Source: Nemertoderma westbladi (lineage: Eukaryota; Animalia; Xenacoelomorpha). From it: DNA of 44,035 nt. The position numbers were made by a program, and so were the translations under genes. The notes below the pieces were generated by a model that had not been told where the DNA came from, searched no databases, and worked only from the letters and a program-made list of their open reading frames with translations. This document shows positions 5,976 through 44,035 of the stretch, in pieces. The stretch's first letter is position 1; each line of letters opens with the position of its first letter. The DNA lies in assembly GCA_032718475.1 (NCBI GenBank), contig JAUCBJ010002129.1, positions 1-44,035 of the forward strand, in the 5' to 3' direction.

Positions 5976-6405
5976 TACTATAACTACGGTAATGACAGTT
6001 ACCTGTATCGGTGTACGGAATTTATTTATTGGCAGATTGGTACCGGTATATACTGATATATGTACCGGTGTATTAATATCCAAACGCAAACACCAGAATG
6101 ATGATAACAACTATCAGACTATAGAAGCTTACCAGTCTAGTCTATACCCAGTACTGGTGTTTTAAGGTTCTGAGGTTTGTTTTATATATACCTTTAAGTG
6201 AAGAATAACGCCGCCCAAGCTAGCATTCTATGTTCTATCCATACAATATAAAACATCCTTATCAGTTTAGCAGTTACCAATTACAGCAGTATAATGCAGT
6301 ATTGGCTTTAGTAATGGCATCTCCATTCAGCACATTTCAGCACTTGCCTACACAACACAATATCCAGATCAGTACAGCAGTAGTCCTGTAGTCAGACAAC
6401 CACGT

Positions 6406-9504: not shown

Positions 9505-10669
9505 CGGGTAAATCATTTCGACCTACGCGTAGCTACGCGTAGTTTGTAACTTCCATTCCTGTCATTTACCGGTAGGGCCAGACTTACTGCCTTTTTGACA
9601 ACTACGCGTAGGTGTTTTAAAACTACGCGTAGTTATTTTGGAACTACTGTACGCGTAGGTATTTTGAAACTACGCGTAGGTGCTACGCGTAGCAGTCCTG
9701 ATAACAATGATTTTTCATTTCAGGTCCGGTAGGGTTGAGTAATGGAATAACAGAGTCGGAAGCTCATATCTCGACATACAGCACTGGTAATAAATAATAT
9801 CGGCTCTTTCACATACAAACACAGGATGAATAAAAAGTAGACTTAAAATTCACGTCTCATGATTCAAGTATATTTGTTTCCATTGGATTATTTAAATATT
9901 CTACAGTAGTAAAGCTACCAGTCTACCGGTGAAGTGGTTAAAGCGAAAGCTGATAAATACTGCATAATTCAATTGTTTGGTCAAATAACAAGTGCAACCA
10001 ATCATGGTAGACAATTTAGTCTCCCCCTTCCCTTGTCAAGAGGTTAACATATTAAATATATCCTTGCCCTATCGTGAACAAAGGCAATAAAAAGCATAGA
10101 GTATCGATAAGAACCATCGGCATATTTCCTTTGTAAACTATTTTTGAACTTTAAACATTATTAACACATTAGCGCCCGCAATGCATGAAGTGAAGAATAT
10201 GTAGTTTTTACCAACCCTGCTAAGATCATAGAACAAAGGTGCCAAGATCTTACCAAGACATATAAAGATCGTAAGCTACGATCAGTGTAGATTGGTGATG
10301 CTGCATGTCTAGGGTTAGCGTATATGCCTCTGTATAGAGTATACAGGTATAGGTTACATTACTGTTGAAAGCATTTGATGGTTGTGCGTTATTGTTTATT
10401 GAACATACAGTATTCTTATTTTAGTACTGAACCGCTTGGAATACGTAGGCCTACTAATGAGAAACGTCGTATAGGCATAGTTATGGGTAGCACCTACGCG
10501 TAGTATTATATGTAGCACCTACGCGTAGGTCGCGTAGGACCTACGCGTAGCTATGTGTAGCACCTACGAGTAGTTAATGTTAAAACTATGAAACTGGTGC
10601 TATATGACCCAATGTTGCGAACTACGCGTAGCTACGCGTAGCTACGCGTTGGTCGAAAAGATTTACCCG
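9505..10669. mobile_element. Non-autonomous TIR element (MITE-like) with subterminal CTACGCGTAG palindromes
   Basis: Left end CGGGTAAATCATTTCGACCTACGCGTAGCTACGCGTAG; reverse complement of right end CGGGTAAATCTTTTCGACCAACGCGTAGCTACGCGTAG (36/38). No ORF and no clear TSD. Confidence 0.85.
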
Positions 10670-11395: not shown

Positions 11396-11654
11396 ATGTC
11401 TTATCGCCATCTTGTGTGCATGTTAAGGAGGAGAGTTGTTAGGAGCAGAGGGGAGTTGCACAAAGTTGAATTAATTCAAATATATTTTGTAATGTAGGCC
11501 TAATTTGTATTTTATTTTATTCAATGTTCTACTCTTTTACTGTGTGAATCCCAGTCTGGATGATGATTCAGTACAGTCTGAATATCGAAAAAAAGGGTTC
11601 ATAAGAATAATAAAAGGGGTCATGGGGTAAAAAAATAACTGGATTGGAAAACGA

Positions 11655-12317
11655 ATGGAAAGCAACGGTGGGCCAATTCGCCCCCCTCCCACCAAATGTT
11701 TTTACAAATCGTAATGAGATTGCATTAAATTTGAAACAGAGATAGTTTCACCTCCCCCCTCCTTGCTGGGTGAGCCAGAATTTTTAATTTCGCTTTCATT
11801 CTTTAACTAGATTTTATTCTATTAAATAAATACAACATATTCTGGAACATTTTGTTAATGCATGAGTAGCTACGTAATACTGTAGTATGATTAAAGTAAA
11901 GAGGCATTTCATTGTTGCCAAGCTACGTATGGGATAAACAAAATATTCTAGAATTTGTTGTATTTATTCAATATAATGAAATAGCCTAGCTTATAAGCAA
12001 AACCATGCACGTTTTAAACGCTTATATCTGTGCCAGCCTCTAAAGGGGCATGAAAAATTTAGATTATGTTACATTTTTGGAATCCATATTCGCCGTAAAT
12101 TTCGCCATTTCACAATTTCGCCGTAAACACCTTTTTCAAACGCTTGCAGCTATAGAATGAAAGCGAAAATAAAAATTCTGGCATCATCCTGCAAGGAGGA
12201 GGGAGGTGAAACTACCTCAGTTTCAAATTTAATGGCAATCTCTTTAAGATTAGTATAATTTTTTTTTGGGGGGGGGGGGGGGGGGGTGGCGAATTGGATC
12301 ACCGTTGCTTTCCATTG
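11655..12317. repeat. Inverted pair of a ~160-bp dispersed repeat (about 11655-11806 and 12151-12317)
   Basis: AATGGAAAGCAACGGTG..CCAATTCGCC..AATTTGAAACAGAGATAGTTTCACCTCC..GCCAGAATTTT..TTTCGCTTTCATTCT and its reverse complement. Confidence 0.85.
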
Positions 12318-13799
12318 CCATTTCTTGCTACAGAGGCCCGCGGGGCGGACCAAAAAAGTTTTCGTTTCTGAATTAATTTCTTTAAAGGGACAAGCCGGTC
12401 ATTTCAGCTTTACATATGGTCTGTAAATGAGCATTAGCTTCCTCTAGCCTCGAATACTGACTGTTCTGGAAATAAGTTGTTAGATTATTTTTGATTGTTT
12501 TAGATTACAGTTCGTTTAATGTGGTTCATCGGCCTGTTTCTTATCACTAATTATAATAATATGGATTATTACAATATGGCTTTCCTGATTCTTCCAACTG
12601 TTAATTTATGTATCTGACGGGTTTAACCTTCGTACTTTATATTTGTGTATATATTATTGTTTTTTTACTTTTTACTTTTACTGTTGCCTGTACTGTAGCC
12701 TTGGAGGCGAACAACAATTGGTTAGAAGATAACCTCTCGTTTTGTCTTTAAGGGGCTTTTTGAGTCGAAACTACAAAGATGAAACTTTGTAATAATATGA
12801 TATGTGGCAACAAAACGACGGTGGGTGTGGTTGAGCATCGAACATAATTACAAACTAATTGATTTATTATGTTAATAAATACTAAAGTACTGTACAGCAA
12901 AACTCTTCGCATGAAAGTACCTATTTCTTACCCTCCCTCAGCAAAAAGCTCGAATAAATTATAAACTATTATTGTCTGTTCGGGTTCGGGAATGGAATAT
13001 GCGGTTATAATAATTTTATAATTACATTTTATTTACAATTATAAAATGTATAACGGATAAAATTGCTATCGCACTAACAGTATATCATTTAACATATTTT
13101 CTGGCTATAACAATTTTAGATTGGAATAGCTCAATGGTCTGAGGGATAGCAATCGTATGCAAATACAGAAACTGGATGATCACAATGAGGGTTTGAAGAA
13201 TATATACTGGCAGTAGTACGAGCAATTACAGGTCTGTAACGTATTAACATCGTCGGGCTCCGGTATTACATCGTCGGGCTCCGGTATTCCATTTATCTGA
13301 AAAATCCACCTTTATCACTAAATTTTATGTTTATTGCCTATTCCGTATCATAACTACACTATATATATATATATATCACCCTATATCACTAACTGATAAG
13401 TATCATTCCTATTTCCCTACCTTATTGTAGGACAGAATATACATTATAAAGGCCTGCTGCATTTCTTAATAATCAGTTATAGAGCCTAGTGGATAATATG
13501 TATATAAGTAATAATAATTTACGTCAGAAGGTGATAACTTACACGGAAGAGGACTGTCAATCACCGTCTCTCCTTCGTAATCATAGAAAGAACCATATCC
13601 AGATCCATGTCGTTTTCTGTTTGAACCGGATTTTACCAAAACTGAATCCATTTCTGGACCAACAAAAATCAAATCAATCGCAGAGAATATACCAAATTGT
13701 TACAGGATATCTTAGTTTATAAATGAACTACTATAAAGGCCTATGTATTGTGTCATTGTGTTATCTTTTTGTTAGTGTAAATAATGATATTATAAAATA

Positions 13800-14006
13800 A
13801 TGATTTTGTTCTGAAATGGAAAAATTGAGGAAGCACTGGGGTTTGAACCAGCTCTATACGTGCGTTTCGGACTATCAGGCCTCGTCAGTAGCGCTAACCA
13901 GTTCAGCCATTCTCCACTGACTCTTGCCTTCCTATTTAATCCAATTCTATTGGACAGGCAATATTAATTTGTATATCCTATAAGTTGCATTTCTGAACAA
14001 AATCAT
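13800..14006 (-). mobile_element. Short IR-bounded element containing a tRNA-like Pol III unit with an embedded hammerhead
   Basis: IRs ATGATTTTGTTCTGAAATG (13800-13818) and CATTTCTGAACAAAATCAT (13988-14006), 18/19. On the minus strand: A box TGGCTGAACTGG (13898-13909), B box GGTTCAAACCC (13839-13849), T5 at 13820-13824. Confidence 0.7.
13851..13894 (-). ncRNA. Type I hammerhead ribozyme (minimal stem III)
   Basis: Minus strand GCGCTA CTGACGA GGCCT-GAT-AGTCC GAAAC GCAC GTA TAGAGC: complete CUGANGA/GAAA/GUA core, with one mismatch each in stems I and II. Confidence 0.8.
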
Positions 14007-14743
14007 AATAATAATAACATTTATAACTGAGTTGAGATAACAGCTCAACTCCAATTAATTTAGTGTAAATAATAAACAATAATATATTATATGTATATTG
14101 TATAATGTATATTAAATGCATTTATTATATCCACAATGAAGTAAGTCTTACAGTACTGACAAGTTTATTTACATTAATGCAATGAATATAGTGATTGGCT
14201 AGATTTAAGGAGTCAAATAATCTCTGTGCTACAAAGTGGACTTATTTTTTTTGGCAAACATTCTTATAGCAGTGATTATCAGGAAAGATAATTAATGATA
14301 AAAGTGTATTACCACCATAATACCAATAAACTATTTAGCCCAATTTTGATTGTATGTTAAAGTGATTAATAATAATGGGAAAGCTTTTAATCTGGTTCTA
14401 CTGTATTTGCATTTCAAAGGATTATGCCTAAATGAATCTCATTCAATCAATAAATAATTTACAATATTTAGCATTCATGTAACATATGTGAGATACGTAA
14501 TCTATATTCACTTTTAGACCCGTACGATTAGAAGGCGGATCTGATTGCTACTTTACATTACTTCATTAGTAAACCAACGCCGCTACATTTAGTGAAACTA
14601 CTATAGCTCTCTACAACGCAATATCACCACCACACACAGCCTCGCAGCCTTTGGGGGTTGTTTCTGCAGATGGTATGCAATGTCAATGGACTAACAGTAC
14701 GGTGTAACTACAAACTACAAGGTGTGGTGCCGATGTTAGCAGA

Positions 14744-15485
14744 ATCATCCGTCGTAACTACACGGTGCAGTGGCGACGATAGCGGTATGGCTAATCATCC
14801 ATCGTAACTACACGGTGCAGTGGCGACGATAGCAGTATGGCTAATTAACCGTCGTAACTACACGTGCAGTGGCGACGATAGCAGTATGGCTAATCAACTA
14901 TTATAACTGCACGGTGCAGTGGCGATGATAGCAGTATGGCTAATCATCCATCGTAACTACACGGTGCAGTGGCGACGATAGCAGTATGGCTAATTAACCG
15001 TCGTAACTGTACGGAGCAGTGGCGATGATAGCAGTATGGCTAATCAACTATTATAACTGCACGGTGCAGTGGCGATGATAGCAGTATGGCTAATCATCCA
15101 TCGTAACTACACGGTGCAGTGGCGACGATAGCAGTATGGCTAATTAACCGTCGTAACTGTACGGAGCAGTGGCGATGATAGCAGTATGGCAAATCAACTA
15201 TTATAACTGCGCGGTGCAGTGGCGATGATAGCAGTATGGCTAATCATCCTTCGTAACTACACGGTGCAGTGGCGACGATAGCAGTATGGCTAATTAACCG
15301 TCGTAACTGTACGGAGCAGTGGCGATGATAGCAGTATGGCTAATCATCCATCGTAACTACACGGTGCAGTGGCGACGATAGCAGTATGGCTAATTAACCG
15401 TCGTAACTGTACGGAGCAGTGGCGATGATAGCAGTATGGCTAATCAACTATTATAACTGCGCGGTGCAGTGGCGATGATAGCAGT
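14744..15485. repeat. 50-bp minisatellite, left block (~15 units)
   Basis: Unit ATAACTGCACGGTGCAGTGGCGACGATAGCAGTATGGCTAATCAACTATC and variants. Confidence 0.97.
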
Positions 15486-16253: not shown

Positions 16254-16319
16254 GCAGTATGATAGCCGTCGTAATGTAACGTGATGTAACGTAATGTAAC
16301 TAATCGTAACGTAACTAAT

Positions 16320-19300
16320 CAGCCGTCGTAACTACACGGTGCGGTGACGACGATAGCAGTATGGCTAATCATTCGTTGTAACTGCCCGGTGCAGTGGCGA
16401 CGATAGCAGTATGGCTACTCATTCGTCGTAACTGCACGGTGCAGTCAGTGGCGTGATAGCAGTATGGCTAATCATTCGTCGTAACTGTACGTTGCAGTGG
16501 CGATGATAGCAGTATGGCTAATCAACCATCGTAACTACACGGTGCAGTGGCGACGATAGCAATATGGCTAATCAACTATCATAACTACACGGTGCAGTGG
16601 CGACGACAGCAGTATGGCTAATCAACTATCATACCTGTACGGTGCAGTGGCGATTATATCAGTATGGCTAATCAACCGTCGTAACTACACGGTGCAGTGG
16701 CGACGATAGCAGTATGGCTAATCAACTATCACAACTGTACGTTGCAGTGGCGATGATAGCAGTATGGCTAGTCAACTATCATAACTGCACGGTGCAGTGG
16801 CGACGATAGCAGTATGGCTAATTAACCGTCGTAACTGTACGGTGCAGTGGCGACGATAGGAGTATGGCTAATCAACCGTCGTAACTACACGGTGCAGTGG
16901 CGACGATAGCAGTATGGCTAATCATCCATCGTAACTACACGGTGCAGTGGCGACGATAGCAATATGGCTAATCAACCGTCGTAACTACATGGTGCAGTGG
17001 CGACGATAGCAGTATGGCTAATCAACCGTCGTAACTACACGGTGCAGTGGCGACGATAGCAGTATGTCTAATCATCCATCGTAACTACACGGTGCAGTGG
17101 CGACGAAGGCGGTATGGCTAATCATCCATCGTAACTACACGGTGCAGTGGCGACGATCGCAGTATGGCTAATCAACTATCATACCTGTACGTTGCAGTGG
17201 CGATGATAGCAGTATGGCTAATCAACTATCATACCTGTACGTTGCAGTGGCGATTATATCAGTATGGCTAATCAACCGTCGTAACTACACGGTGCAGTGG
17301 CGACGATAGCAGTATGGCTAATCAACTATCACAACTGTACGTTGCAGTGGCGATGATAGCAGTATGGCTAATCAACTATCATAACTGCACGGTGCAGTGG
17401 CGATTATATCAGTATGGCTAATCAACCGTCGTAACTACACGGTGCAGTGGCGACGATAGCAGTATGGCTAATCAACTATCACAACTGTACGTTGCAGTGG
17501 CGATGATAGCAGTATGGCTAGTCAACTATCATAACTGCACGGTGCAGTGGCGACGATAGCAGTATGGCTAATCAACCGTCGTAACTGCATGGTGTGGTGG
17601 CAATGATAGCAGTATGGCTAATCAACCGTCGTAACTCCACGGTGCATTGGCGATGATAGCAGTATGGCTAATCAACCGTCGTAACTTCACGGTGCAGTGG
17701 CGATGATAGCAGTATGGCTAATCAACTATCATAACTGCACTGTGCAGTGGCGATGATAGCAGTATGGCTAATCAACCGTCATAACTACACGGTGCAGTGT
17801 CAACGATAGCAGTATGGCTAATCAACTGTCATAACTGCACGGTGCAGTGGCGATGATAGCAGTATGACTAATCAACTATCATAACTGCACGGTGCAGTGG
17901 CGATGATATCAGTATGGCTAATCAACCGTTGTAACTTCACGGTGCGGTGGCGATGATATCAATATGGCTAATCAACCGTCGTAACTGCACGGTGCGGTGG
18001 CGATGATAGCAGTATGGCTAATCATCCGTCGTAACTGCACGGAGCGGTGGCGACGATAGCAGTATGGCTAATCAACTATCATAACTGCACGGTGCAGTGG
18101 CGATGATAACAGTATGGCTAATCAACCGTCGTAACTGCACAGTGCGGTGGCGATGGTATCAATATGGCTAATCAACCGCCGTAACTGCATGGTGCAGTGG
18201 CGACGATAGCAGTATGGCTAATCAACTATCATAACTGCACGGTGCAGTGGCGATAATAGCAGTATGGCTAATCAACCGTCGTATCTTCACAGTGCGGTGG
18301 CGATGGTATCAATATTGCTAATCAACCGTCGTAACTGCACGGTGCGGTGGCGATGATAGCAGTATGGCTAATCATCCGTCGTAACTGCACGGTGCGGTGG
18401 TGACGATAGCAGTATGGCTAATCCACTATCATAACTGCACGGTGCAGTGGCGACGATAGCAGTATGGCTAATCAACTATCATAACTGCACGGTGCAGTGG
18501 CGATAATATCAGTATGGCTAATCAACCGTCGTAACTGCACAGTGCGGTGGCGATGGTATCAATATTGCTAATCAACCGTCGTAACTGCACGGTGCGGTGG
18601 TGACGATAGCAGTATGGCTAATCATCCGTCGTAACTGCACGGAGCGGTGGCGATAATAGCTGTATGGCTAATCAACTATCATAACTGCACGGTGCAGTGG
18701 CGATAATAGCAGTATGGCTAATCAACCGTCGTATCTTCACAGTGCGGTGGCGATGGTATCAATATTGCTAATCAACCGTCGTAACTGCACGGTGCGGTGG
18801 CGATGATAGCAGTATGGCTAATCATCCGTCGTAACTGCACGGTGCGGTGGTGACGATAGCAGTATGGCTAATCCACTATCATAACTGCACGGTGCAGTGG
18901 CGACGATGGCAGTATGGCTAATCAACTATCATAACTACACGGTGCAGTGGCGACGATAGCAGTATGGCTAATCATCCGTCGTAACTGCACGGTGCGGTGG
19001 TGACGATAGCAGTATGGCTAATCCACTATCATAACTGCACGGTGCAGTGGCGACGATGGCAGTATGGCTAATCAACTATCATAACTACACGGTGCAGTGG
19101 CGACGATAGCAGTATGGCTAATCAACTATCATAACTGTACGGTGCAGTGGCGATGATAACAGTATGGCTAATCAACTATCATAACTGCACGGTGCAGTGG
19201 CGACGATAGCAGTATGGCTAATTAACCGTCGTAACTGTACGGTGCAGTGGCGATGATAACAGTATGGCTAATCAACTATCATAACTGCACGGTGCAGTGG

Positions 19301-21547
19301 CGACGATAGCAGTATGGCTAATCAACCGTCGTAACTGCACGGTGCAGTGGCTATGATAGCAGTATGGCTAATCAACTATCATAACTGCACGGTGCAGTGG
19401 CGACGATAGCAGTATGGCTAATCAACCGTCGTATCTTCACAGTGCGGTGGCGATGGTATCAATATTGCTAATCAACCGTCGTAACTGCACGGTGCGGTGG
19501 CGATGATAGCAGTATGGCTAATCATCCGTCGTAACTGCACGGTGCGGTGGTGACGATAGCAGTATGGCTAATCAACTATCATAACTGCACGGTGCAGTGG
19601 CAACGATAGCAGTATGGCTAATTAACCGTCGTAACTGCACGGTGCAGTGGCGATGATATCAATATGGCTAATCAACCGTCGTAACTGCACGGTGCGGTGG
19701 CGATGATAGCAGTATGGCTAATCCACTATCATAACTGCACGGTGCAGTGGCGACGATAGCAGTATGGCTAATCAACTATCATAACTACACGGTGCAGTGG
19801 CGACGATAGCAGTATGGCTAATCAACTATCATAACTGTACGGTGCAGTGGCGACGATAGCAGTATGGCTAATCAACCGTCGTAACTGCACGGTGCAGTGG
19901 CTATGATAGCAGTATGGCTAATCAACTATCATAACTGCACGGTGCAGTGGCGACGATAGCAGTATGGCTAATCAACCGTCGTATCTTCACAGTGCAGTGG
20001 CGACAATAGCAGTATGGCTAATTAACCGTCGTAACTGCACGGTGCAGTGGCGACGATAGCAGTATGGCTAATCAACTATCATAACTGCACGGTGCAGTGG
20101 CGACGATAGCAGTATGGCCAATTAACCGTCGTAACTGCACGGTGCAGTGGCGACGATAGCAGTATGGCTAATCAACTATCATAACTGCACGGTGCAGTGG
20201 CGACGATAGCAGTATGGCTAATCAACTATCATAACTGCACAGTGCAGTGGCGATGATAACAGTATGGCTAATTAACTATCATAACTACACGGTGCAGTGG
20301 CGACAATAGCAGTATGGCTAATTAACCGTCGTAACTGCACGGTGCAGTGGCGAAGATAGCAGTATGGCTAATCAACTATCATAACTGCACGGTGCAGTGG
20401 CGACGATAGCAGTATAGCTAATTAACCGTCGTAACTGCACGGTGCAGTGGCGACGATAGCAGTATGGCTAATCAACTATCATAACTGCACGGTGCAGTGG
20501 CGACGATAGCAGTATGGCTAATTAACCGTCGTAACTGCACGGTGCAGTGGCGACGATAGCAGTATGGCTAATCAACTATCATAACTGCACGGTGCAGTGG
20601 CGACGATAGCAGTATGATTAATCAACTATCATAACTGCACGGTGCAGTGGCGACGATAGCAGTATGGCTAATCAACTATCATAACTGCGCGGTGCAGTGG
20701 CGATGATAACAGTATGGCTAATCAACTATCATAACTGCACGGTGCAGTGGCGACGATAGCAGTATGGCTAATTAACCGTCGTAACTGCACGGTGCAGTGG
20801 CGACGATAGCAGTATGGCTAATCAACTATCATAACTGCACGGTGCAGTGGCGACGATAGCAGTATGACTAATCAACTATCATAACTGCACGGTGCAGTGG
20901 CGACGATAGCAGTATGACTAATCAACTATCATAACTGCACGGTGCAGTGGCGACGATAGCAGTATGGCTAATCAACTATCATAACTGCGCGGTGCAGTGG
21001 CGATGATAACAGTATGGCTAATCAACTATCATAACTGCACGGTGCAGTGGCGACGATAGCAGTATGGCTAATTAACCGTCGTAACTGCACGGTGCAGTGG
21101 CGACGATAGCAGTATGGCTAATCAACTATCATAACTGCACGGTGCAGTGGCGACGATAGCAGTATGACTAATCAACTATCATAACTGCACGGTGCAGTGG
21201 CGACGATAGCAGTATGGCTAATCAACTATCATAACTGCGCGGTGCAGTGGCGATGATAACAGTATGGCTAATCAACTATCATAACTGCACGGTGCAGTGG
21301 CGACGATAGCAGTATGGCTAATTAACCGTCGTAACTGCACGGTGCAGTGGCGACGATAGCAGTATGGCTAATCAACTATCATAACTGCACGGTGCAGTGG
21401 CGACGATAGCAGTATGGCTAATTAACCGTCGTAACTGTACGGAGTAGTGGCGATGATAGCAGTATGGCTAATCAACTATCATAACTGCACGGTGCAGTGG
21501 CGACGATAGCAGTATGGCTAATCATCCGTCGTAACTACACAGTGCAG
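16320..21547. repeat. 50-bp minisatellite, main block (~104 units)
   Basis: Strict 50-bp period over about 5.2 kb with a small set of recurring variants. Confidence 0.98.
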
Positions 21548-25415: not shown

Positions 25416-25994
25416 CGTAATTTTATAATTTACTAAACGGGGTCAACGACCCCAGTATTTATTTTAATCTAATTTATATTTATTCCATATGACGTTAAGA
25501 ACTTACATCCGCAGTTCATATAAATTATGCACCAAATTATTTTGCCAAACAAACCCTATGATTTCTTTATAGTAAAGCTCTGGATTCTTTATTGACCTAT
25601 ATATTTATTTATAGATTTAGTTATTCTTTATGATCATTTAATTTATTAAAGCCCTTGATTCGTTAATGACTTACATATACACTTACGTATCTATTTACTT
25701 TTTCTTTATGATGTTCCACTAAAGCTTATTTCTGCATTTAATTTATAACTATTGACCTATTTAATCAATTTCTATTTCTGCATTTAATTTATAACTATTG
25801 ACCTATTTAATCAATTTCTATATTCTCACTAACTGTCGTTATATTTCTCGGACTATATCGACATTTTGTGCTGTCTTGTTATATTAAGTTATTATTGCCA
25901 ATATATAAAACACAATGAAGCACACTAACTAAATTAATATAAACTACCTACCTAACTATATACAAAAGTACAAAATCAGTCTAACCCACTGAGT

Positions 25995-28190: not shown

Positions 28191-28532
28191 GAAGGTTGGT
28201 TGTAGCTGAGTCAGTCAGTCCAGCAGTATTCCAGTAGTATTCCAGCTGTATTCCAGTAGTAATACATCCGTAGATTGAAGGATGAATTTAAAAGCAATAT
28301 TTATATGTGTTTGAATCTATAATTTACTGTTGCAATTATTAGTCAATATTAAACATACATACATACATAATTAGGTACCTATATTCTAAATTATAGCCCA
28401 AACCATACAATTTTGAAACGGTGAGAGTGATAAATCGAAGAGTTGTCCGAAAATGGTGTACCCCCCACTGCGATAAATTAAGAGCCAGTCACAAATAGCA
28501 GTAAATTATTATTGCTGCACTAATACGGCAAG

Positions 28533-31090
28533 AATCGGCATGCTGCACTATTACTGCAATAATCGACATGATGCACATACTACTGCATTAATCGGCATGT
28601 TGCACTGCTACTGCAATAATCGGCATGCTGCACTATTACTAAAATAATCGTCATGCTGCACAATTACTACAATAATTGGCATGCTGCACTACTACTACAA
28701 TAATCGGCATCATGCACTGCTACTACAATAATCGTCATGCTGCACTATTACTACAATAATTGGCATGCTGCACTGCTACTGCAATAATCGGCATGCTGCA
28801 CTATTACTACAATAATCGGCATGATGCACTACTACTGCAATAATCGTCATGCTGCACTATTACTACAATAATTGGCATGCTGCACTGCTATTGCAATAAT
28901 CGGCATGCTGCACTATTACTACAATAATCGGTATGATGCACTATTACTAAAATAATCGGCATGCTGCACTATTACTAAAATAATCGTCATACTGCACAAT
29001 TACTACAATAATTGGCATGCTGCACTACTACTACAATAATCGGCATCATGCACTGCTACTACAATAATCGTCATGCTGCACTATTACTACAATAATTGGC
29101 ATGCTGCACTGCTACTGCAATAATCGGCATGCTGCACTATTACTACAATAATCGGCATGATGCACTACTACTGCAATAATCGTCATGCTGCACTATTACT
29201 ACAATAATTGGCATGCTGCACTGCTACTGCAATAATCGGCATTCTGCACTATTACTACAATAATCGGTATGCTGCACTGCTACTGCAATAATCGTCATGC
29301 TGCACTATTACTACAATAATTGGCATGCTGCACTGCTATTGCAATAATCGGCATGCTGCACTATTACTACAATAATCGGCATGATGCACTATTACTAAAA
29401 TAATCGTCATGCTGCACTACTACTACAATAATCGGCATCATGCACTGCTACTACAATAATCGTCATGCTGCACTATTACTACAATAATTGGCATGCTGCA
29501 CTGCTACTGCAATAATCGGCATTCTGCACTATTACTACAATAATCGGTATGCTGCACTGCTACTGCAATAATCGTCATGCTGCACTATTACTGCATTAAT
29601 CGGCATGCTGCACTGCTACTGCAATAATCGTCATGCTGCACTACTACTACAATAATTGGCATGCTGTACTGCTACTGCAATAATCGTCATGCTGCACTAC
29701 TACTACAATAATTGGCATGCTGCACTGCTATTGCAATAATCGGCATGCTGCACTATTATTACAATAATCGGCATGATGCACTATTACTAAAATAATCGTC
29801 ATGCTGCACTATTACTGCAATAATCGTCATGCTGCACTATTACTACAATAATTGGCATGCTGCACTGCTATTGCAATAATCGGCATGCTGCACTATTACT
29901 ACAATAATTGGCATGCTGCACTGCTACTGCAATAATCGGCATGATGCACTACTACTGCAATAATCGTCATGCTGCACTATTACTACAATAATTGGCATGC
30001 TGTACTGCTACTGCAATAATCGTCATGCTGCACTACTACTACAATAATTGGCATGCTGCACTGCTATTGCAATAATCGGCATCATGCACTGCTACTACAA
30101 TAATCGTCATGCTGCACTATTACTACAATAATTGGCATGCTGCACTGCTACTGCAATAATCGGCATTCTGCACTATTACTACAATAATCGGTATGCTGCA
30201 CTGCTACTGCAATAATCGGCATGATGCACTACTACTGCAATAATCGTCATTCTGCACTATTACTACAATAATTGGCATGCTGTACTGCTACTGCAATAAT
30301 CGTCATGCTGCACTACTACTACAATAATTGGCATGCTGCACTGCTATTGCAATAATCGGCATGCTGCACTATTATTACAATAATCGGCATGATGCACTAT
30401 TACTAAAATAATCGTCATGCTGCACTACTACTGCAATAATCGGCATGATGCACTACTACTGCAATAATCGTCATGCTGCACTATTACTACAATAATTGGC
30501 ATGCTGCACTGCTACTGCAATAATCGTCATGCTGCACTATTACTACAATAATTGGCATGCTGCACTGCTACTGCAATAATCGACATGCTGCACTATTACT
30601 ACAATAATTGGCATGCTGCACTGCTACTGCAATAATCGGCATGCTGCACTATTACTACAATAATTGGCATGCTGCACTGCTACTGCAATAATCGGCATGC
30701 TGCACTATTACTACAATAATTGGCATGCTGCACTACCACTACAATATCGACATGCTGCACTGCTACTACAATAATCGTCATGCTGCACAATTACTACAAT
30801 ATCGACATGATGCACTATTACTACAATAATTGGCATGCTGCACTGCTACTGCAATAATCGGCATGCTGCACTATTACTACAATAATTGGCATGCTGCACT
30901 GCTACTGCAATAATCGGCATGCTGCACTATTACTACAATAATTGGCATGCTGCACTGCTACTGCAATAATCGGCATGCTGCACTATTACTACAATAATTG
31001 GCATGCTGCACTATTACTGCATTAATCGGCATGCTGCATTGCTACTGCAATAATCGGCATGCTGCACTGCTACTACGATAATCGTCATGC
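28533..31090. repeat. 28-bp minisatellite (~90 units)
   Basis: Unit AATAATCGGCATGCTGCACTATTACTAC with alternating variants that give a 56-bp dimer. Confidence 0.98.
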
Positions 31091-31575
31091 TTGATGCATT
31101 ATGATTGCTATGACTACTTAGCAATAAAATTATGCTGCCACAATTTAATCCACAATCGGCATTTTTGCATTATCCGAGCCATGTACCATAAACCTATATG
31201 GGTAGCTGCCTGTTCTCATTGGTTAGAATCTGTCATTTTGTTCAATAAAAATGTTTCAAGACTAAAAAAATTATGGTGATAGTGTCGAAGTTATTATAAT
31301 CACTTTTATATATTTAAATAATTTAATATCTTTCGCATCTACGTAATCTTTGGCCATATCATCTGTCAAACAGATGGTTACAATAATCACTTTTTATGAA
31401 TTATGATTTTTTAAATTTATAATTATAATATTATTTAATCGTTGCATTATTATTGGCATTTCAGAAATCTGGGAAATTATATACATAATATTTTAACCTA
31501 TAATTACTCCTATGGACATTACCGGCTACATGTAAGGACAATTACTCCTAACAACATTTTGGGCGAAAGAGTAAC

Positions 31576-32232
31576 ATGGATATCGAGTTCGCGAAAATAA
31601 TATTGGTCGCGGTTTCTATATTGACAGAGAAAGTTATAGATGTGTCTACCACTGCTACTTGTTTTTATAGACGCACCCTGATTACCTATACGACCGCTCA
31701 TCCCGACGTGTTCCCAGATGTCGATTGGTATGTAGAACACCCAGGTTCCAGTGAAACAGATTGCTCCACCTGTGCTTTGATATTCAATCAATTGCCAGGA
31801 AAATTTTCCTTAAACAACGACAACATGAAAGGTTTGATGTACACGAGGTACGAATACTGCGTTCGTGATGAATGCAAGGATTACAAAGAAGACGAATGTA
31901 TGCTGGTGTATCAGGATTCCCTTCAAGAGATTGGATCAACGTACAGCATCGAGATGACACATCCAAGCTGCCAGCAGATCTGTTGCAACGGCACAGAAGC
32001 CTGCAACAAAGTAGAAGACGTGATGTGGGAACACGATTATCTGTACCCAAATGGAACCGTGAATTGGAATGATCCCATGTTTGATCCTGTTACAACAGAA
32101 CCACCAAATACCACAGAGGCAGAGCCCACGACAACGGCTGAAATATTCACAACAGCTAGTTTGGCGAAACACCTCAATGGAGTTGATTATATTCTGCTGA
32201 CATTAACAACAATTACTATTAACTTCTACTGA
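31576..32232 (+). CDS. Putative secreted/GPI-anchored Ly6/uPAR (three-finger, quiver-like) protein with a Thr-rich stalk
   Basis: 218-aa intact ORF in AT-rich flanks: hydrophobic N-terminus, 10 Cys ending in CCNGTEACN, N-glycosylation sequons (NGT twice, NTT), TTEPPNTTEAEPTTT stalk and a hydrophobic C-terminal tail. Confidence 0.75.
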   Translation: MDIEFAKIILVAVSILTEKVIDVSTTATCFYRRTLITYTTAHPDVFPDVDWYVEHPGSSETDCSTCALIFNQLPGKFSLNNDNMKGLMYTRYEYCVRDECKDYKEDECMLVYQDSLQEIGSTYSIEMTHPSCQQICCNGTEACNKVEDVMWEHDYLYPNGTVNWNDPMFDPVTTEPPNTTEAEPTTTAEIFTTASLAKHLNGVDYILLTLTTITINFY

Positions 32233-32639: not shown

Positions 32640-33180
32640 TTATCTTAATTTTATATGGCTCCGAAACATGGCTAACAGAACAACTACAGAGTGTAGAATC
32701 AATGTATGTAGACGTTATAAAGTCCTGCCTTGGGGTCCGTAAATCGTGTTCTAATGATCTATGTCTAGTTGAATTACGAATTCCCTCCGTAAAAGCTCCA
32801 ATTAAGTCCAGACAGAGGCTTTTCATTTCGTTTGTCTCTAAGACTATAAGAATGGACCACTACTGTTTGCTCTAAACTTGGCTAGATCGCTACGTAGCCC
32901 CATGGCGCTATACTGTTGGCCATGGAATCTGACCCTATCAAAACGGACATGTCAGATCGCATAAACAGACTTTCGAGAGACACAAGCTCTCCAAAAACTG
33001 AAATATATAGAAAAATACATCCAGAACTAAAAGTAAATACGAAAATATATAATGAAAAAGTAAGTAATAACGAAGTCCACCGTCTCTTGTGGACACGGAG
33101 CCGTTTATCGGCCCACAAACTGCGCATAGAGACCGGGAGGTGGTCATGTATTCCACGTGAGCGACGCATATGCCATTGTA
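32640..33180 (+). pseudogene. 3' fragment of an RTE-X-like non-LTR ORF2
   Basis: ILYGSETW, CLGVRKSCSNDLCLVEL, TRSRLSAHKLRIETGRWSCIPRERRICHC. Confidence 0.8.
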
Positions 33181-33196
33181 TATGTTATAGTGCATT

Positions 33197-33360
33197 ATGA
33201 TAATGCTCTCCATAGCGTAAAATATCAACCGCCCCTATTGGGGCTCGAACCCGGTTACCTAGGTTTCAAACTTCCGGTTATCATCAGCCGAGTGTGTGTC
33301 CTAAGACCACTGAGCTACCAGGGCGGTAGAAGATTTTTTCACTATGGAGTGGGCTATCAT
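33197..33360 (-). mobile_element. Second IR-bounded tRNA-like Pol III unit with an embedded hammerhead
   Basis: Minus strand A box TAGCTCAGTGG (33307-33317), B box GGTTCGAGCCC (33241-33251), acceptor-like ACCGCCC/GGGCGGT pairing extended by imperfect IRs ATGATA..CTCCATAG..ACCGCCC, and a downstream T4. Confidence 0.7.
33249..33293 (-). ncRNA. Type I hammerhead ribozyme-like motif
   Basis: Minus strand ACTCGG CTGATGA TAAC-CGGAA-GTTT GAAAC CTAG GTA A CCGGGT. Stem III is the palindrome ACCTAGGT; stem II closes with U-U and there is one extra A after the GUA. Confidence 0.65.
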
Positions 33361-33435
33361 ATACTGTCATATCACATGTCATATCACATACTATCATATA
33401 TTGTACTTTCCTATGAGTGACTGAAAAAGGCCTAA

Positions 33436-33521
33436 ATATGATAGCCCACTCCATAGTGAAATAATCTTCTACCGCCCTGGTAGCTCAGTGGTCTTAGGAC
33501 ACACACTCAGCTGATGATAAC
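33436..33521 (+). repeat. Inverted, truncated second copy of the 33.2-kb element (ends at CTGATGATAAC)
   Basis: Near-identical reverse complement of about 33277-33362; abuts the LINE RT. Confidence 0.9.
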
Positions 33522-33522
33522 A

Positions 33523-36135
33523 CTAGTGACTTCAAACTTAGTTACCTTCTTTAACTTTCTTTTAGAACCAAACAAAATACTTTCAGTCTTACCGTAGTGA
33601 ATGGATAGCTTATTATCAACCAACCACTCATTACAGGATTCTAGAACTGCACTTAACTTTTGGGAAATATGGATAGGATCTTTATGAGAGAAAATAAGAG
33701 CACTGTCGTCGGCATATAAAATGAGTTTAAAATCGGGATCTATACTACTTATCATATCATTTACATAGCATACAAAAAGCAGAGGACCTAATATACTACC
33801 TTGCGGTACGCCACAGGTAATCTCTTGTACAGTAGACTGCGATTTGCTAATGACTACAGTTTGACCTCTGTCTGACAGGTAGGACTTGAACCAGTCTATA
33901 GAACCTACACCCATCAGGCCTAACTTACCAAGCAGAATTTCGTGATCTACAGTATCGAAAGCCTTTTGTAGGTCCAACATTACCATACCAGTATATAAAA
34001 CCTTTGCGTTATTACATCTAATTGTATCAGTTAAGTTAATAAGGCAGGTGTCTGTAGAATATGATTTACGAAAACCGGACTGAAGTTCATAGATCAGATT
34101 TAGCCTACTAAGATGTGCTTCCAGCTGTAGAAAAACAGAACGTTCTAGAATTTTAGATACAATACTTAAGATACTAACAGGTCTGTAATTACAGGGTTCT
34201 ACTTTACTATTATTTTTATACAGAGGAACAACCTTAGCTAATTTCAGTTCGTCTGGTACTACATTATCTACGATAGAGTAACACGCACTTTAAGTACTTC
34301 AGCACCATCCTTAAGAAAACGGGCAGGTATTAGGTCTAGACCGGTACTTTTTGAGGCTGATGGGCTAAGTAGATTTTGAAATACGAAATCCTCAGAAACG
34401 GGTTTTAAAAATAACTTTTCTGAATTTTGTAACTTTTCAAAATAAAAATTATTTAGAGTTTCGGACCCTATACTATATTTATTACTTGATAACGGTAACT
34501 TCTTAACTAAATTAGAGGCAACATTAGTAAAATAATTATTAAATAAATTACTAACTAGAGTATGATCATGAATCAGCTAACCGTTATCTTGCAGAACAAT
34601 ATTCGATTTAGATTTTAGGTTTTTATAACCTAAATATTTTAGGGTAGACCATAGACTTTTAGGATTATCTTTATTCTCACTTATTTTGTTGTACAAATAT
34701 TCAGATTTAGCTTTTTTTATTTCCCGTTGGACAAGGTTTCTATATTTGCAGTAATTATTATAATCAGCTGAAACACGGTATTTCCTAAATTTATACAAAT
34801 AGTTATCTCTTTCTCTGATATTACTAAGGATACCCGAGGTCATCCAGGGCTCAGTGCGTTGTTTAAGACTAATTTCTTTAATTGGTGCTACAGTATTAAG
34901 TGCCTTTAGAAAATTATCTTTAAAAACAGTGTACGCAAGGTTAATGTCAGCGGCCTTAAAACAGGGTTCCCAGTCAGAATTAACTAACAAACTTAAAAAG
35001 CGTTCCTTGCTGTAATTTTTCATAGACCTAACTGTTACTGTTTTATGATCCCCGAAAAAAGATTTTTGTGTCTTCCTTGTGCAAAAAAACTATAAAATGA
35101 TCGCTTAGACCTATAGGTAAAACCCCAGATTGAGAAATAATATCGGTATTATTACAAAGGATGTGATCTAGTAAAGTAGAAGTTTTACTGGTAATTCTGG
35201 TAGAATCTCGAATAATTTGTTTTAAACCAAACAAATTTAAAATACTTTGGTACTGTTTACAGATGGGGGATGCTTTGTGATGGTAACAGATATTAAAATC
35301 ACCTAAGAAATATATTTCACAGTCTGACCTAAGATTACATAAAATTGTATTTTAAAAATTTTGCAAAAAATCTGATTGTTTAGGGGGCCGATATAAAGTA
35401 CCGATTAAAAGCTAAATCACATCGAATGTAAGTAGAGACACCACCACCGTGTCTGTCCCTATCCTTACGTAAAACTACGTAATTATCAATATAAATTTCT
35501 CCATCAGAAACACTATCATCGAGCCAAGTTTCAGAGATTGTTAAAACCGCTGGGTTGGATTTATTGATTAAAATACGAATTTCGGAAAGTTTGGGAAGCA
35601 GAGATCGCGTGTTTAAATGCAAAAAATGCAGACCTTTTTTCTTAAAAAATTTAAAAGTTTCACTCTCAGCATCACTTGGAGTTTGCAGAGGCGATGTGAG
35701 GAATGAATCGTCGGTTTCTGATTCTAAAATTGTATCATGAAAGGGAAGTTCGGTAAAAATACAGCTATTGCAGAGAAAACTTGGTTCAAGATTGTTTCTG
35801 GTGGAGAATAAATTACTGCTTTTCCTACGGTAACATTTAAAATGTACAAATGTGTCACAACTCTCGCATTGGACGATCTTACTCCGAGAGTTTGTTCCTC
35901 GTTGACAGACGGGACAGTTGATCTTCGGGGCCCGCGTCCTGCTGGGTCCTCGGTTGGTCTTAATATCCCCAGCCAGAGACAGAAGACAGAGTTTGGTGAT
36001 TAGGCCTCTAGTTCGTGGAGAGGAGACCCAAGATCTTCTTCCCCGACGAGAACAGTAGAGGCTAAATCCACTCGTCGACCACATCTCCGTCGAGGTGTGG
36101 TTGAAATTATGTAATTTAGTTTGATTGTTAATCAA
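33523..36135 (-). pseudogene. CR1/L2-group LINE ORF2 (2A-like motif, PHD finger, APE endonuclease, RT), frameshifted and 3'-truncated
   Basis: LAGDIKTNRGP; CPVC..CESCDTFVHFKC..CNSC; HLNTRSL, ISETWL, RKDRDRHGGGV, STLLDHI, GLSDHF; EPWMT; [38 protein letters not shown]. Confidence 0.93.
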
Positions 36136-37079
36136 TTTTATTTGTAAATCTTCAGATTTACTTACTGTAAGAAAATCGTGTCTGTCTGTCTGTTTGTCAC
36201 ACGAAATGCTCCGAAACTATCCGGTCAATTGTGTTGTTCTTTGTATTATGTTCTTGGTTCCCGTTTATTTATATCCGTTATTTGTACCGTCAATTGTATC
36301 GATTGGACTAATCTATTTTGTCTGTATTATTCTGTCTTATTGTCTGTATGTTGTAAATTGTTCATATTATTACAGAATGCTGTGCAATCACCCGGGATTA
36401 GTCAATAAAATAACTAAATAACTAACTAACTAAATTAACTATAATAATAGCATTTAAGAATAGCATTGAATTAAAAATATTGAACAAAAAATAGCATTGA
36501 ATTAAGAATATTGAACTTATAGCATTGAATTGAAAACCCTTTCTTTTCTTCAATCCCAGTACTTACGATCCTATACCACCAGTATCTGCGCCTATTACTG
36601 AATTTTAGCAACTGAATATTATAATAATAGCCTTTAACTAACTACTCACTGTATGTTTTGCACACTACACCCTTCTTGAGTCTAGCTTCCACACTTGTGA
36701 CACACCAATACTTGAATACTTCATCATCCCACTCAACACCTGAACCTTCACATTCATTGGATATTGAGTTTATTGACATTCACATTCGATGCTTGAAGTT
36801 TGTCTTCATTTCATATCGAGCTTGCTTACTTAACGTCCATTTCTGTCCGCACACCAGGGGCCAGTTGCATAATTCAACCTTAGCTAAGGTGTACATTAAG
36901 TACTAAGTGTTGCCTTAAATGGTAGCACGATCTTAGTTCCAATCGCACATTTTCAAAGGCGAACTTAGTTCCAACTGAAACAAATTTAGATCCAAAGTAA
37001 ATTTTATAAAGCGAACTTAGTTCCAATCCAAGAATATCAAAACGAAATTAAAGTAAAATTGAAGTAAAAGTTAAAACCG

Positions 37080-40560: not shown

Positions 40561-41307
40561 TGAGATAGTTTCACCGATATGTGATAGTGAGATAGATAGT
40601 GAGATAGATAGTGAGATAGATAGTGAGATAGATAGTGAGATAGATAGTGAGATAGATAGTGAGATAGATAGTGAGATAGATAGTGAGATAGATAGTGAGA
40701 TAGTTTCACCGATATGTGATAGTGAGATAGATAGTGAGATAGATAGTGAGATAGATAGTGAGATAGATAGTGAGATAGATAGTGAGATAGATAGTGAGAT
40801 AGATAGTGAGATAGATAGTGAGATAGATAGTGAGATAGATAGTGAGATAGATAGTGAGATAGATAGTGAGATAGATAGTGAGATAGATAGTGAGATAGAT
40901 AGTGAGATAGATAGTGAGATAGATAGTGAGATAGATAGTGAGATAGATAGTGAGATAGATAGTGAGATAGATAGTGAGATAGATAGTGAGATAGATAGTG
41001 AGATAGATAGTGAGATAGATAGTGAGATAGATAGTGAGATAGATAGTGAGATAGATAGTGAGATAGATAGTGAGATAGATAGTGAGATAGATAGTGAGAT
41101 AGATAGTGAGATAGATAGTGAGATAGATAGTGAGATAGATAGTGAGATAGATAGTGAGATAGATAGTGAGATAGATAGTGAGATAGATAGTGAGATAGAT
41201 AGTGAGATAGATAGTGAGATAGATAGTGAGATAGATAGTGAGATAGATAGTGAGATAGATAGTGAGATAGATAGTGAGATAGATAGTGAGATAGATAGTG
41301 AGATAGT
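40561..41307. repeat. 12-bp tandem repeat (GATAGTGAGATA)n, about 60 copies
   Basis: Near-perfect array with the variant GAGATAGTTTCACCGATATGT at its start and again near 40700. Confidence 0.98.
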
Positions 41308-42029
41308 AAGTTGTTGGTACTGATTGAAAACTGGCCATGCAAGATAATCTGATTTTTGCTGAAAAATAGCTGATATCAAGGACTTCTAGAACATAATATT
41401 TATAATATTTTGATCCATGTTCTTGTAGACCTTGCTGATATATGGGCGTTCGAAGTGGCATGTTTATGCATCTGTGCAAGGGTTGTGGGATTCTTGCATG
41501 GTCAGTTTTCAATCAATACCAACAAATCACTAACGGTACAAGAATAACTGCGGTTTTCTCTATATTTTTTTTGGAAGGAAAGTATAACACTGCGACATTG
41601 GGTTGAAGTGGTATGCAAGGACAGTCAAGTTTAGATGAACTCCGTATCCAAAAATGTCGAGAAGTCTGATACGGAATTTTATAAGCTAGAGAGATAGAGA
41701 TAGAGAAGGCAAAATCGAAATACAATGCTTAGTCACTTAGTCAAAAAAACAAAAAACAAAACAAAAAAAACAAAAAAACACTTAGTCAATGATGGGATAA
41801 GGGTCATGGAAGATGGAATAGGTTTACATTGAGTTCAATTACATATGTTTACACCATGTCCTGGAATGTAGTGTCGTTATTCATGTACCTGCCCCCTACC
41901 CCCCCCCCCCCCCCCCAAAAAAAAAAATTTGTTTTTCTTCAAAACTTAATGAGATTACATGAAATTTGAAACAGAGATAAATTTACCTTCCTCCACCTTG
42001 CTGACTGAGCCAGAAGTTTTATTATATTT

Positions 42030-42287
42030 AATATTTACGAATTATATTTATTTATTTATCAAGCACGTTTAATTAAAAAACCTTACCGGTAGGTGTGTTA
42101 GTACCAAAGTATGTAAAAAACTAAAACCCCGACGTTGCATGCAATCAGAGATCAGCTGACAGCAGCCAGCTGATCGGTAGGTTTCGCCCTACCTTAGTTT
42201 TTTACATACTTTGGTACTAACACACCTACCGGTAATGTTTTTTACTTAACCTGCTTGATAAATAAATAAATATAATTTGTAATTATT
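42030..42287. mobile_element. ~255-bp fold-back MITE with ~90-bp arms
   Basis: TTACCGGTAGGTGTGTTAGTACCAAAGTATGTAAAAAACTAA is perfectly inverted, the outer AT-rich arms are also inverted, and there is an inner hairpin GATCAGCTG..CAGCTGATC. Confidence 0.85.
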
Positions 42288-43008
42288 GTATTCTCATTGG
42301 TGTGTGTATTTATATACACCATATTCTGCTAACAGTGCTAACATATGGATAATCAAATTGTTCCTGAATATCATGTATTTATTAAAAATGAATTAAAAAT
42401 CGATACTATCGTTATTTTTGATCGCATTGGAGAGGGTGTTTGTTGAAGACAAACCATCTTATAATATTACGATTTTTGGTGATTTTAATTTCAGAACATC
42501 GTCGGAACTCGATTATATTGGAAATGACTGACGTAAGCGAGTATATTCTGTATGACATACTTCCGCCATACATTCTACTCTTTCGATGACGAAATACAAC
42601 CAGACCAGTTGGGGAACAGCAGTGAACTCGAACAATAATAATAATGCACACATACTTTATATCCGCGAAGAAATTCACAGGCAATGCAGTACCACGGATT
42701 AGCAAATGAGATTGTCTCGTTGCGTATAAACAATAATAACTGTTTTACGTCATTGTTCATGCATAGTAAAATGTATGGCGTAGGGACATTGGACATACTG
42801 AGCAATAATGACGCACTGCGATATAAAGCTGGAAATTATGTAGTACTGGAGATTTGATGTGCGAAATTAATTCCATACAAATAAATAAAATATTTGTTGT
42901 GTAAATACAATTATCGTTATCGTAAAAATGCGCAAATACAAAACCATGAAACTTTCGAACGCCCACACCTCAGCTATCTTTTCACGGCCAGTTTTCTAAC
43001 AACATCTC

Positions 43009-43108
43009 TACTACTACTATCGGCATGCTGCATTACAGCTGCATTAAATATATATTACATATATATTAAGAATGCTGTGCCGGCTTGCGGACCAAATTTG
43101 GTGTCTAA
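43009..43108 (-). mobile_element. ~100-bp retroposed fragment with a (TAG)n tail and TSD, sharing the 3' end of the 27.2-kb RTE fragment
   Basis: Shared AAGCCGGCACAGCATTCTTAA..AATGCAGCTGYAATGCAGCATGCCRAT..AGTAGTAG; flanking direct repeat CTAAC(C)AACATCTC. Confidence 0.65.
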
Positions 43109-44035
43109 CTAACCAACATCTCACTACATATATGTATAAGGTTGAAGAATAACTGCGGTGTCCGGCGGAGACACCGTTTTAAAATGCTTGTTTCTAAAGA
43201 ATAAAAGCGAAAATAACAATTCTGGCTCACGCATTAAGGAGGAAGGAGGTGAACCGATCTCTTTTTAAAAATTCCTGCAATCTCATTTGATTTGTAGAAA
43301 TATTTGGGGGGAAGGGAGGGGGGGGGCAGATACCTGAAAAACGACACTATATTACAGGACATGAGCATTATTTTTACTGTTTGAGTCGCGCGTTACTATA
43401 AAAACATAATTAGAAAAATGTTCCAGATTCCGTACAAACATTAACAGTTCAGTAGTAGTGCAAAACACCCAAATAAATTATGACAAGTCTTTTACTTTTA
43501 TAAAAGAACCAAAGTAATATTTGAAGGAAATACATAATTGTAGCGAACAGTAGAACTCAAGGTTTGATAATATGAAATTTATTTAATATTGGGTAGATGT
43601 AACTGCGTAACCATGAAATTTCACACGTTGACAAATGTTGCGATTGTTATGCATTGCTTGGTTTTTGCTATTCAGAGCGTTGTAAACCATCTGATGTAAG
43701 TTTGCAACCGTAGCCAACTATGTAGGCCTAAATATAATAAATTAATAATTGCAATGTATCGCATAATTGGTATGTACGTTTTTTGTTTAAGGCTTTGACT
43801 TATCATTTTATTACATAATAGCACACCTAATTATATACCTTTTTGCACCGAATAAACTCAACTTTCCACCAAAAACGGCTCACTTTTTAGCACCAAATGT
43901 TATAAGGTCTGTCTATGGCGCGGGTTAGGGTCGCCCTGTCGAAACCATAGACAAAAAGTGTCTTCAACCCTAAACCTAACTGAAAACCTGGTTTTCAACC
44001 ATGCCTGTGGCCAATAAGGCCAATTGAAGCCATAT

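Follow-up and report, generated by a model that had tools for sequence, protein, structure and literature searches.

The 44,035-nt stretch of DNA analysed here, which we call the window, carries on its minus strand an element, E2, whose sequence reads as a tRNA scaffold in which a hammerhead motif would occupy the position of the anticodon arm. Its anatomy, its family, two positions of its 3' end and a local head-to-head layout were all established. We propose that E2 is a copy of a non-autonomous retrozyme/Sm-alpha-like element, copied by a Penelope-type reverse transcriptase-endonuclease, and we assign to this proposal a probability of about 0.5.

The first-pass annotation had reported A box, hammerhead, B box and inverted-arm motifs for this second element of the window, and every one of them is present at that place on the minus strand, in the order closing stem, U8-type A box, type I hammerhead, B box, 3' strand of the closing stem and T run (Table 1). 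The alignment of the inverted arms spans 41 and 39 nt, and in the predicted fold the pairs of the closing stem (33327-33321/33234-33228) have probabilities of 0.83-1.0. Judged by its motifs, the unit packs a promoter match, a ribozyme motif and a putative terminator into ~110 nt. ARAGORN found no tRNA at E2, and Rfam gave neither a hammerhead (RF00163) nor a tRNA match for it. MicroRNA hairpin models of Rfam were rejected for this locus, as they score below gathering and match the E2/E2b inversion.

Table 1. Positions in the window of E2, its neighbourhood and the divergent element E1.
Feature	Position	Strand	Basis
E2: TA-bounded inverted-arm unit with tRNA-like promoter match and hammerhead motif	33196..33361	-	sequence, contig ends
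5' arm, 41 nt, with closing (acceptor-like) stem at its end (33327-33321)	33321..33361	-	alignment with 3' arm
Pol III type-2 A box match	33307..33317	-	sequence
Type I hammerhead motif, dimer type	33249..33293	-	descriptor, homodimer fold
Hammerhead stem I	33293-33288/33254-33249	-	sequence
Core CUGAUGA	33287-33281	-	sequence
Weak stem II: U-U plus three pairs	33280-33268	-	sequence
GAAA	33267-33264	-	sequence
Stem III: perfect 8-nt palindrome	33264-33257	-	sequence
GUA triplet, predicted cut after 33256	33258-33256	-	sequence
Extra A behind triplet	33255	-	minority allele in contigs
B box / T-arm match, overlapping stem I 3' strand	33241..33251	-	sequence
T run, predicted Pol III terminator; T4 in E2 (33222-33219)	33218..33222	-	sequence and family depth
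3' arm, family's main 3' boundary at its end	33196..33234	-	arm alignment, contig ends
Optional 3' tail, 14-17 nt, common to other copies	33179..33195	-	contig depth
Junction filler from short duplications of E2's end, 39 nt	33362..33400	.	TRF 33357-33389, period 12; one zero-depth bin
Repeated sequence upstream of ATGAT in E2's subfamily	33401..33436	+	depth 4084-7434 in X1
E2b: inverted partial copy, head-to-head with E2, interrupted in stem II	33437..33521	+	84/86 identical to E2 (98%)
LINE reverse-transcriptase frame, cut off at E2b end	33507..34289	-	Pfam RVT_1, E 1.8e-34
E1: sequence-divergent partner family	13800..14006	-	descriptor, contig depth
E1 parts: A box; core; GUA; B box; T5; with 22-nt arms	13909-13898; 13888; 13859-13857; 13849-13839; 13824-13820	-	
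14-bp direct repeat bracketing E1 plus 14 and 53 nt (13772-13785/14060-14073)	13772..14073	.	

The family of E2 was followed in contigs of public runs from two studies, X1, which may be the source of the window, and X2, aligned on a 511-base stretch that includes ~70 bases of LINE (455 and 855 aligned contigs, respectively). Summed depth over the hammerhead, B box and 3' arm was ~42,000-104,000 in X1 and 90,000-180,000 in X2, against 56 and 143 in the flank, values that are not to be read as copy number. E2 belongs to a many-copy family, and in both studies the hammerhead, B box, T run and 3' arm are linked at high depth; the A box and the hammerhead are linked in contigs of the E1 family, so that the tRNA-like and hammerhead parts, which the first-pass annotation had allowed might normally occur apart, are joined elsewhere too. 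Across the A box and the 5' arm, the region in which most copies diverge, depth drops about tenfold; the 5' half of the A box recurs in the loose-end consensus of other copies and its 3' half varies. In runs of two other organisms (X6 and X7) no contig aligned to the E2 or E1 stretch, which does not prove absence from them.

Variation among the copies largely keeps the structure. The U-G pair of stem I is C-G in 69% (X1) or 57% (X2) of the depth, and stem I is mostly fully paired across the family; the alleles at the closing-stem pair 33323/33232 allow C-G, U-G, G-C or A-U, although they are not phased on single contigs; a common variant at 33275 lies in loop II. The T run is T5 in 99.8-99.9% of the depth. 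In the hammerhead core no variant reaches at least 8% of the depth, and the core is thus conserved across copies as anticipated, although, since the family is homogeneous, missing core variants alone are weak evidence of selection. Two caveats had been attached to this copy, a U-U pair closing stem II and an extra A after the cleavage triplet. The former holds family-wide, while the latter falls, since the extra A is a minority allele, absent in 78% of the depth in X1 and X2 alike (34 and 44 contigs).

A descriptor combining hammerhead, A box and B box, written post hoc after both elements had been seen, has exactly two matches in the window, E2 and the element at 13888 (E1), and a relaxed scan of the window gave no third element. 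The descriptor had no full match in 1000 dinucleotide shuffles, which contained 13 hammerhead-only matches and one hammerhead with B box. A pattern scan for core and B box retrieved 3 loci from viral contigs, 118 from metagenomes, of which 54 of 64 parts were scanned, and 105 from prokaryote genomes; none of these 226 loci has all parts, and of the five that passed a filter for stem and B box none has an A box. When viral contigs were scanned for an A-box start plus core, nine loci were obtained, and inspection by eye showed no B box within 30 nt downstream of the triplet in any of them. Two of the metagenome contigs (L042 and L115) carry a type I hammerhead of the dimer type, with a 6-bp stem I, a 4-bp stem II and a palindromic stem III, that runs into a B-box-like word; L115 has no upstream A box and L042 has 15 bases of upstream sequence. 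Elsewhere in the window, an A-box-like match resembling that of E2 (13127-13144, plus strand) is followed by neither hammerhead nor B box.

E1 and E2 have a local alignment score of 28, against 19.5 ± 3.1 for shuffles with a maximum of 38; the similarity is not significant, which bears out the remark in the first-pass annotation that they have little primary sequence in common. With the extra A of E2 discounted, both elements have 32 nt between the cut site and the T run, and 57-58 nt between the cut site and ATCAT. The nested layout, with equal spacing in unrelated sequences, has either been retained or evolved twice. For E1, Rfam RF00163 gives 17 bits, below the gathering score of 34. In the E1 family the mismatch in stem II is a pair in 95-97% of the depth, and position 7 of the core varies. 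The arms of E1 are found at ~1/200 of the core depth in X1 and still lower in X2; the inverted arms differ in length in other E1-type copies, with two joints to 13988, and one E1-type contig has arms without the promoter-hammerhead cassette. No fold was found for the end of E1, whose left end reads AA, not TA. The 14-bp direct repeat around E1 was found at 2 of 825 sampled positions, both being the repeat itself, and from its sequence and placement it is a possible target duplication. Upstream of E1, ~20 nt (13925-13945) are 90% alike to a 46-bp tandem repeat at 25756-25821; a short hairpin with 8-bp arms (14024-14046) lies in a repeated segment 5' of the element, and joints from the E1 core restart at 14037-14039 in other copies.

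With regard to the ribozyme, CUGANGA, GAAA and an NUH triplet are present in order in E2, and stem I has 6/6 pairs, with one bulged A in the E2 copy. An 8-bp stem III is possible only as a dimer: when the unchanged 45-nt core was folded as a homodimer, the minimum-energy structure was a double hammerhead with exchanged stems I and the 8-bp stem III, at -26.0 kcal/mol versus -5.7 per monomer. As a monomer, the full predicted transcript of E2 preferred another fold, in which stem I pair probabilities are 0. The G10.1-C11.1 pair closing stem II is present in E1; throughout the E2 family it is missing and replaced by U-U, or by a bulged U and then A-U, so cleavage is not assured. As this pair is termed highly conserved in the hammerheads of Penelope-like elements (PLEs) described in PMC4209133, the activity of the E2-family ribozyme may, to judge from the sequence, be low. 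The same paper describes an unpaired base after A9 in PLE hammerheads, and the first U of stem II in E2 could be that base.

The lack of an Rfam match for E2, the U-U pair and a monomer fold that disfavours the ribozyme would all be expected if the parts had come together by chance, or if a decayed tRNA pseudogene happened to resemble a hammerhead. We give this hardly any credence: the shuffles yielded no full match, the full set of parts occurred in none of the 226 pattern-matched loci, and E2 belongs to a many-copy family with structure-keeping variants. These observations, with the two matches in the window, uphold the earlier suggestion of a recurrent class of elements.

The ends of the family proved less simple than had been supposed. 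At the main 3' boundary, position 33196, 21 and 23 contigs diverge into mutually unlike AT-rich sequence. Beyond it, a minority of copies, E2 with 17 nt among them, continues into the tail, whose bin has a depth of 3884 (X1) and 9055 (X2) versus 56 and 96 immediately outside; 5 of the 16 pieces listed start at 33179-33182, and 7 contigs have loose ends at 33179. The tail is also present in three of the pieces listed that depart from E2 beyond 33299, and it is thus optional across subfamilies. A hairpin between the tail and the 3' arm is not significant, since 163 of 2000 random flanks and 51 of 2000 shuffled tails fold equally well. The first-pass annotation had taken ATGAT..ATCAT as the termini of the mobile unit, and this is not supported in that form, given the tails to 33179-33182, the repeats upstream of ATGAT and the low depth of the E1 arms. 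Family sequence outside ATGAT and ATCAT on both sides, the T run and the inverted copy E2b are all additions to that first description.

A promoter, a hammerhead and an end placed 58-75 nt after the cut make up a geometry like that of a pLTR, and retrozymes are reported to derive from pLTRs (bioRxiv 10.64898/2026.07.22.740005, main text). The unit could then be the pLTR of a protein-coding PLE with a tRNA-derived promoter, and its copies solo or truncated ends. We regard this as improbable: the loose ends past the 3' end and past the tail differ from one another (agreement 0.56-0.61) and share no continuation among those listed, and the internal T5 would stop Pol III ahead of an ORF.

Next to E2 lies E2b, separated from it by the filler and the upstream repeat, at which two joints restart (33401 and 33402). 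Around the E2/filler/E2b locus, which sits between two different truncated LINE-like frames, no flanking direct repeat of more than 6 bp was found, and the flanks of E2 insertions are AT-rich. Nine joints in the contigs were read: seven as a head-to-head layout at other loci, one as an internal deletion and one as a different spacer; none joins E2 units head to tail. For each joint there is a single contig per run, aligned at 80% likeness, and among the seven head-to-head joints four are flagged as unreliable, having sides of less than 30 nt. Two of the seven break at 33253, one base off the start of the predicted 3' product. The window itself holds no head-to-tail tandem units, only one full and one inverted partial copy. 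By analogy, the head-to-head copy with filler and without a long duplication resembles a PLE insertion.

The TG..CA ends and the tRNA-like A and B boxes within a unit of 165-205 nt recall the units described in PMC10886601, so that E2 might be the solo LTR of a short LTR retroelement combining a Pol III promoter of the Helenus/TRIMp3 kind with a hammerhead (compare plant LTR retrozymes). This is very improbable: no 4-6 bp duplication stands beside the TG..CA ends of E2 or E1, E1 gives only a 5/6 match in an AAT-rich context, and the window has no second direct copy of E2.

TA stands outside both TGAT ends of E2 and also at E2b, and ITm elements are described as duplicating TA (PMC10045372). 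Together with the 41-nt arms, the sharp boundary at 33196 with its unlike flanks, a depth at 33218 of ~2x the value found for 33232 or 33255, as would result from both ends mapping to one arm, and the E1-type contig with arms and no cassette, this would fit a TA-targeting MITE with TGA..TCA ends, carrying a Pol III-hammerhead cassette, which would have been taken over from a retrozyme or would be retained because it has a function of its own. The predicted Pol III transcript includes neither arm end, and because the T run is inside the element such a MITE has to be reckoned with; nevertheless, we consider it unlikely. The left end of E1 is not TA, the core of E1 is far more abundant than its arms, repeated sequence runs past both ends in E2's subfamily and the tail occurs on other subfamilies too, the mirror layouts would be unexplained, and the same cut-to-end spacing in two unrelated families would need two like captures. 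A non-autonomous IS3EU/GingerRoot element, for which PMC10045372 gives TA..TA termini and a 6-bp duplication, was rejected, as the flanks of E2 and of the E2b-type end mismatch over 6 bp.

Under copying by a Penelope-type enzyme, the A and B boxes would recruit Pol III, and the palindrome would anneal two RNAs into a double hammerhead that is cut after GUA. A longer or read-through RNA with the 3' arm would then be primed by the Penelope protein at 33196 or ~33180, two nearby internal priming sites, use of which would account for the main end and for the optional tail. An inverted 3'-end copy would be placed at the other side by priming on both target strands or by self-priming, and this would give rise to the ATGAT..ATCAT arms and to the mirror layouts; in E2's subfamily such an arm would have become fixed and then diverged. 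Since two-ended priming from one RNA site puts that site at both outer ends, ATGAT..ATCAT would be expected in both families without a transposase. Published descriptions of PLEs offer parallels: a palindromic stem III in a dimer-type hammerhead is described for metazoan PLEs and retrozymes (PMC4209133), and PLE traits include head-to-head inverted repeats and optional tails, as well as insertions of which some have a duplication and others none (PMC3846280). PMC11167929 reports on a purified PLE protein that cleaves AT-rich DNA and extends both target strands, and whose priming at two internal sites defines the tail.

Copying by a Penelope-type enzyme has about an even chance of being correct in our judgement, as it is favoured by the dimer-type hammerhead, the dimer fold, the structure-keeping variants, a spacing conserved without sequence similarity, the head-to-head layouts, the optional tail, the AT-rich flanks and, for E1, the 14-bp direct repeat and the varying length of the arms. 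Against it stand the missing G10.1-C11.1 pair, the three-pair stem II, the monomer fold, the absence of head-to-tail joints among those read and the TA flanks. Its main difficulty is the T5 run, which in nearly all copies lies 21 nt inside the main 3' end. Pol III terminates at T runs; the modelled transcript would be ~110 nt long and without both outer arm ends, so E2 is not a plain SINE, and the end that has to be copied would be missing from a plain Pol III transcript. The template would have to come from read-through, from another promoter or from the other strand. The tail, at 14-17 nt, is also shorter than the optional tail of 30-40 nt given in the PLE papers. GIY-YIG was found in none of nine frames scanned, of 49 listed in the window, and no Penelope ORF was identified there; no ORF with reverse transcriptase and GIY-YIG was seen joined to the repeat in the window, where the flanking frames are a LINE reverse transcriptase (RVT_1) and a frame without assignment.

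More speculatively, and with little probability in our view, the elements may be mobile Pol III micro-genes making a tRNA-shaped RNA of ~110 nt, the anticodon arm of which would be a hammerhead that works in pairs only. The T run and the 32-nt spacing would then define a small RNA that gives the second ribozyme half in trans to long transcripts bearing the family. If this were true, cleavage across the transcriptome would depend on copy number. Were such units to travel as DNA, they would be cut-and-paste elements maintained by selection for a ribozyme, a kind without match in the literature searched.

The window as a whole is eukaryotic DNA rich in repeats, among them LINE and Copia-type frames, satellite arrays and a number of inverted-repeat elements. 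The LINE cut off at E2b is fragmented (33507-36216, minus strand), has a PHD finger and RVT_1, and ends exactly at E2b. A 1245-codon open frame (2373-6110, minus strand) with rve and RVT_2 corresponds to the pol of a Copia-type retrotransposon, truncated within the reverse transcriptase, and a 226-codon frame (31552-32232, plus strand) with a Thr/Pro-rich stretch resembles a Ly6/uPAR-domain protein (Atlas scores <0.9, no Pfam match). Satellites lie at 14743-15485 and 16315-21547, 28513-31091 and 40583-41306, with periods of 50 (~120 copies), 28 (92) and 12 (60). Elements bounded by inverted repeats, some of them nested and interrelated, are found at 9505-10669, 11654-12316, 41304-41532, 41855-43363 and 42030-42287.

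We know of no promoter for animal retrozymes or for most PLE-derived hammerhead repeats. The Sm-alpha/Sj-alpha repeats of Schistosoma are like E2 in being short, many-copy and non-coding, with a tRNA-derived Pol III promoter and a type I hammerhead (PMC6765202, PMC2770079, PMC8490949). As they are portrayed in later descriptions rather than in the original maps, they differ from E2 in having the promoter followed by the hammerhead (PMC6765202), whereas E2 has the hammerhead placed between the boxes, with some of its bases also part of the B box; the Schistosoma unit is 335 nt, whereas E1 and E2 measure ~165-205 nt, have inverted arms and contain an internal T run. tRNAscan assigns related copies to tRNA-Gln(TTG) (PMC2770079), from which we infer that the anticodon arm is kept in Sm-alpha/Sj-alpha.

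The non-LTR retrozymes of metazoans also have a type I hammerhead, a short palindromic stem III and a similar unit size, are proposed to depend on PLEs and can occur as dispersed monomers (PMC7229834; bioRxiv 10.64898/2026.07.22.740005). They are defined there as tandem repeats, with units of ~170-400 nt, that give circular RNA, whereas no tandem form of the E2 unit was seen; the terms 'Pol III' and 'polymerase III' do not appear in the main text of either report. The pLTRs of PLEs resemble E2 in having a dimer-type hammerhead and an optional 3' tail, in occurring as head-to-head copies and in inserting at AT-rich targets, whether or not a duplication results (PMC4209133, PMC3846280, PMC11167929). 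Their promoters are described as TATA/Inr-like, whereas the predicted promoter of E2 is of tRNA type, and E2 has a shorter tail, no G10.1-C11.1 pair and no RT/GIY-YIG ORF seen in the window. Helenus and TRIMp3 have tRNA A and B boxes within a TG..CA-ended unit, with a 4-5 bp duplication and paired LTRs, neither of which E2 has (PMC10886601; hammerheads are named there only in a reference title).

The literature searched, which included PMC4455052, PMC3088659 and PMC5993326 and consisted mostly of open-access main texts, not Repbase, gave no description of a hammerhead set between A and B boxes or carried by an inverted-repeat element; the supplements of PMC7229834, PMC4209133 and bioRxiv 10.64898/2026.07.22.740005 may hold similar elements. 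E1 and E2 bear on how hammerhead repeats are transcribed and on whether dimer-only hammerheads act in trans, and the comparison suggests that two-ended Penelope insertion perhaps produced some of the elements whose ends have had them classed as MITEs. What E2 adds to the known hammerhead repeats is a dispersed form that has inverted arms and in which the T run and the spacing are conserved.
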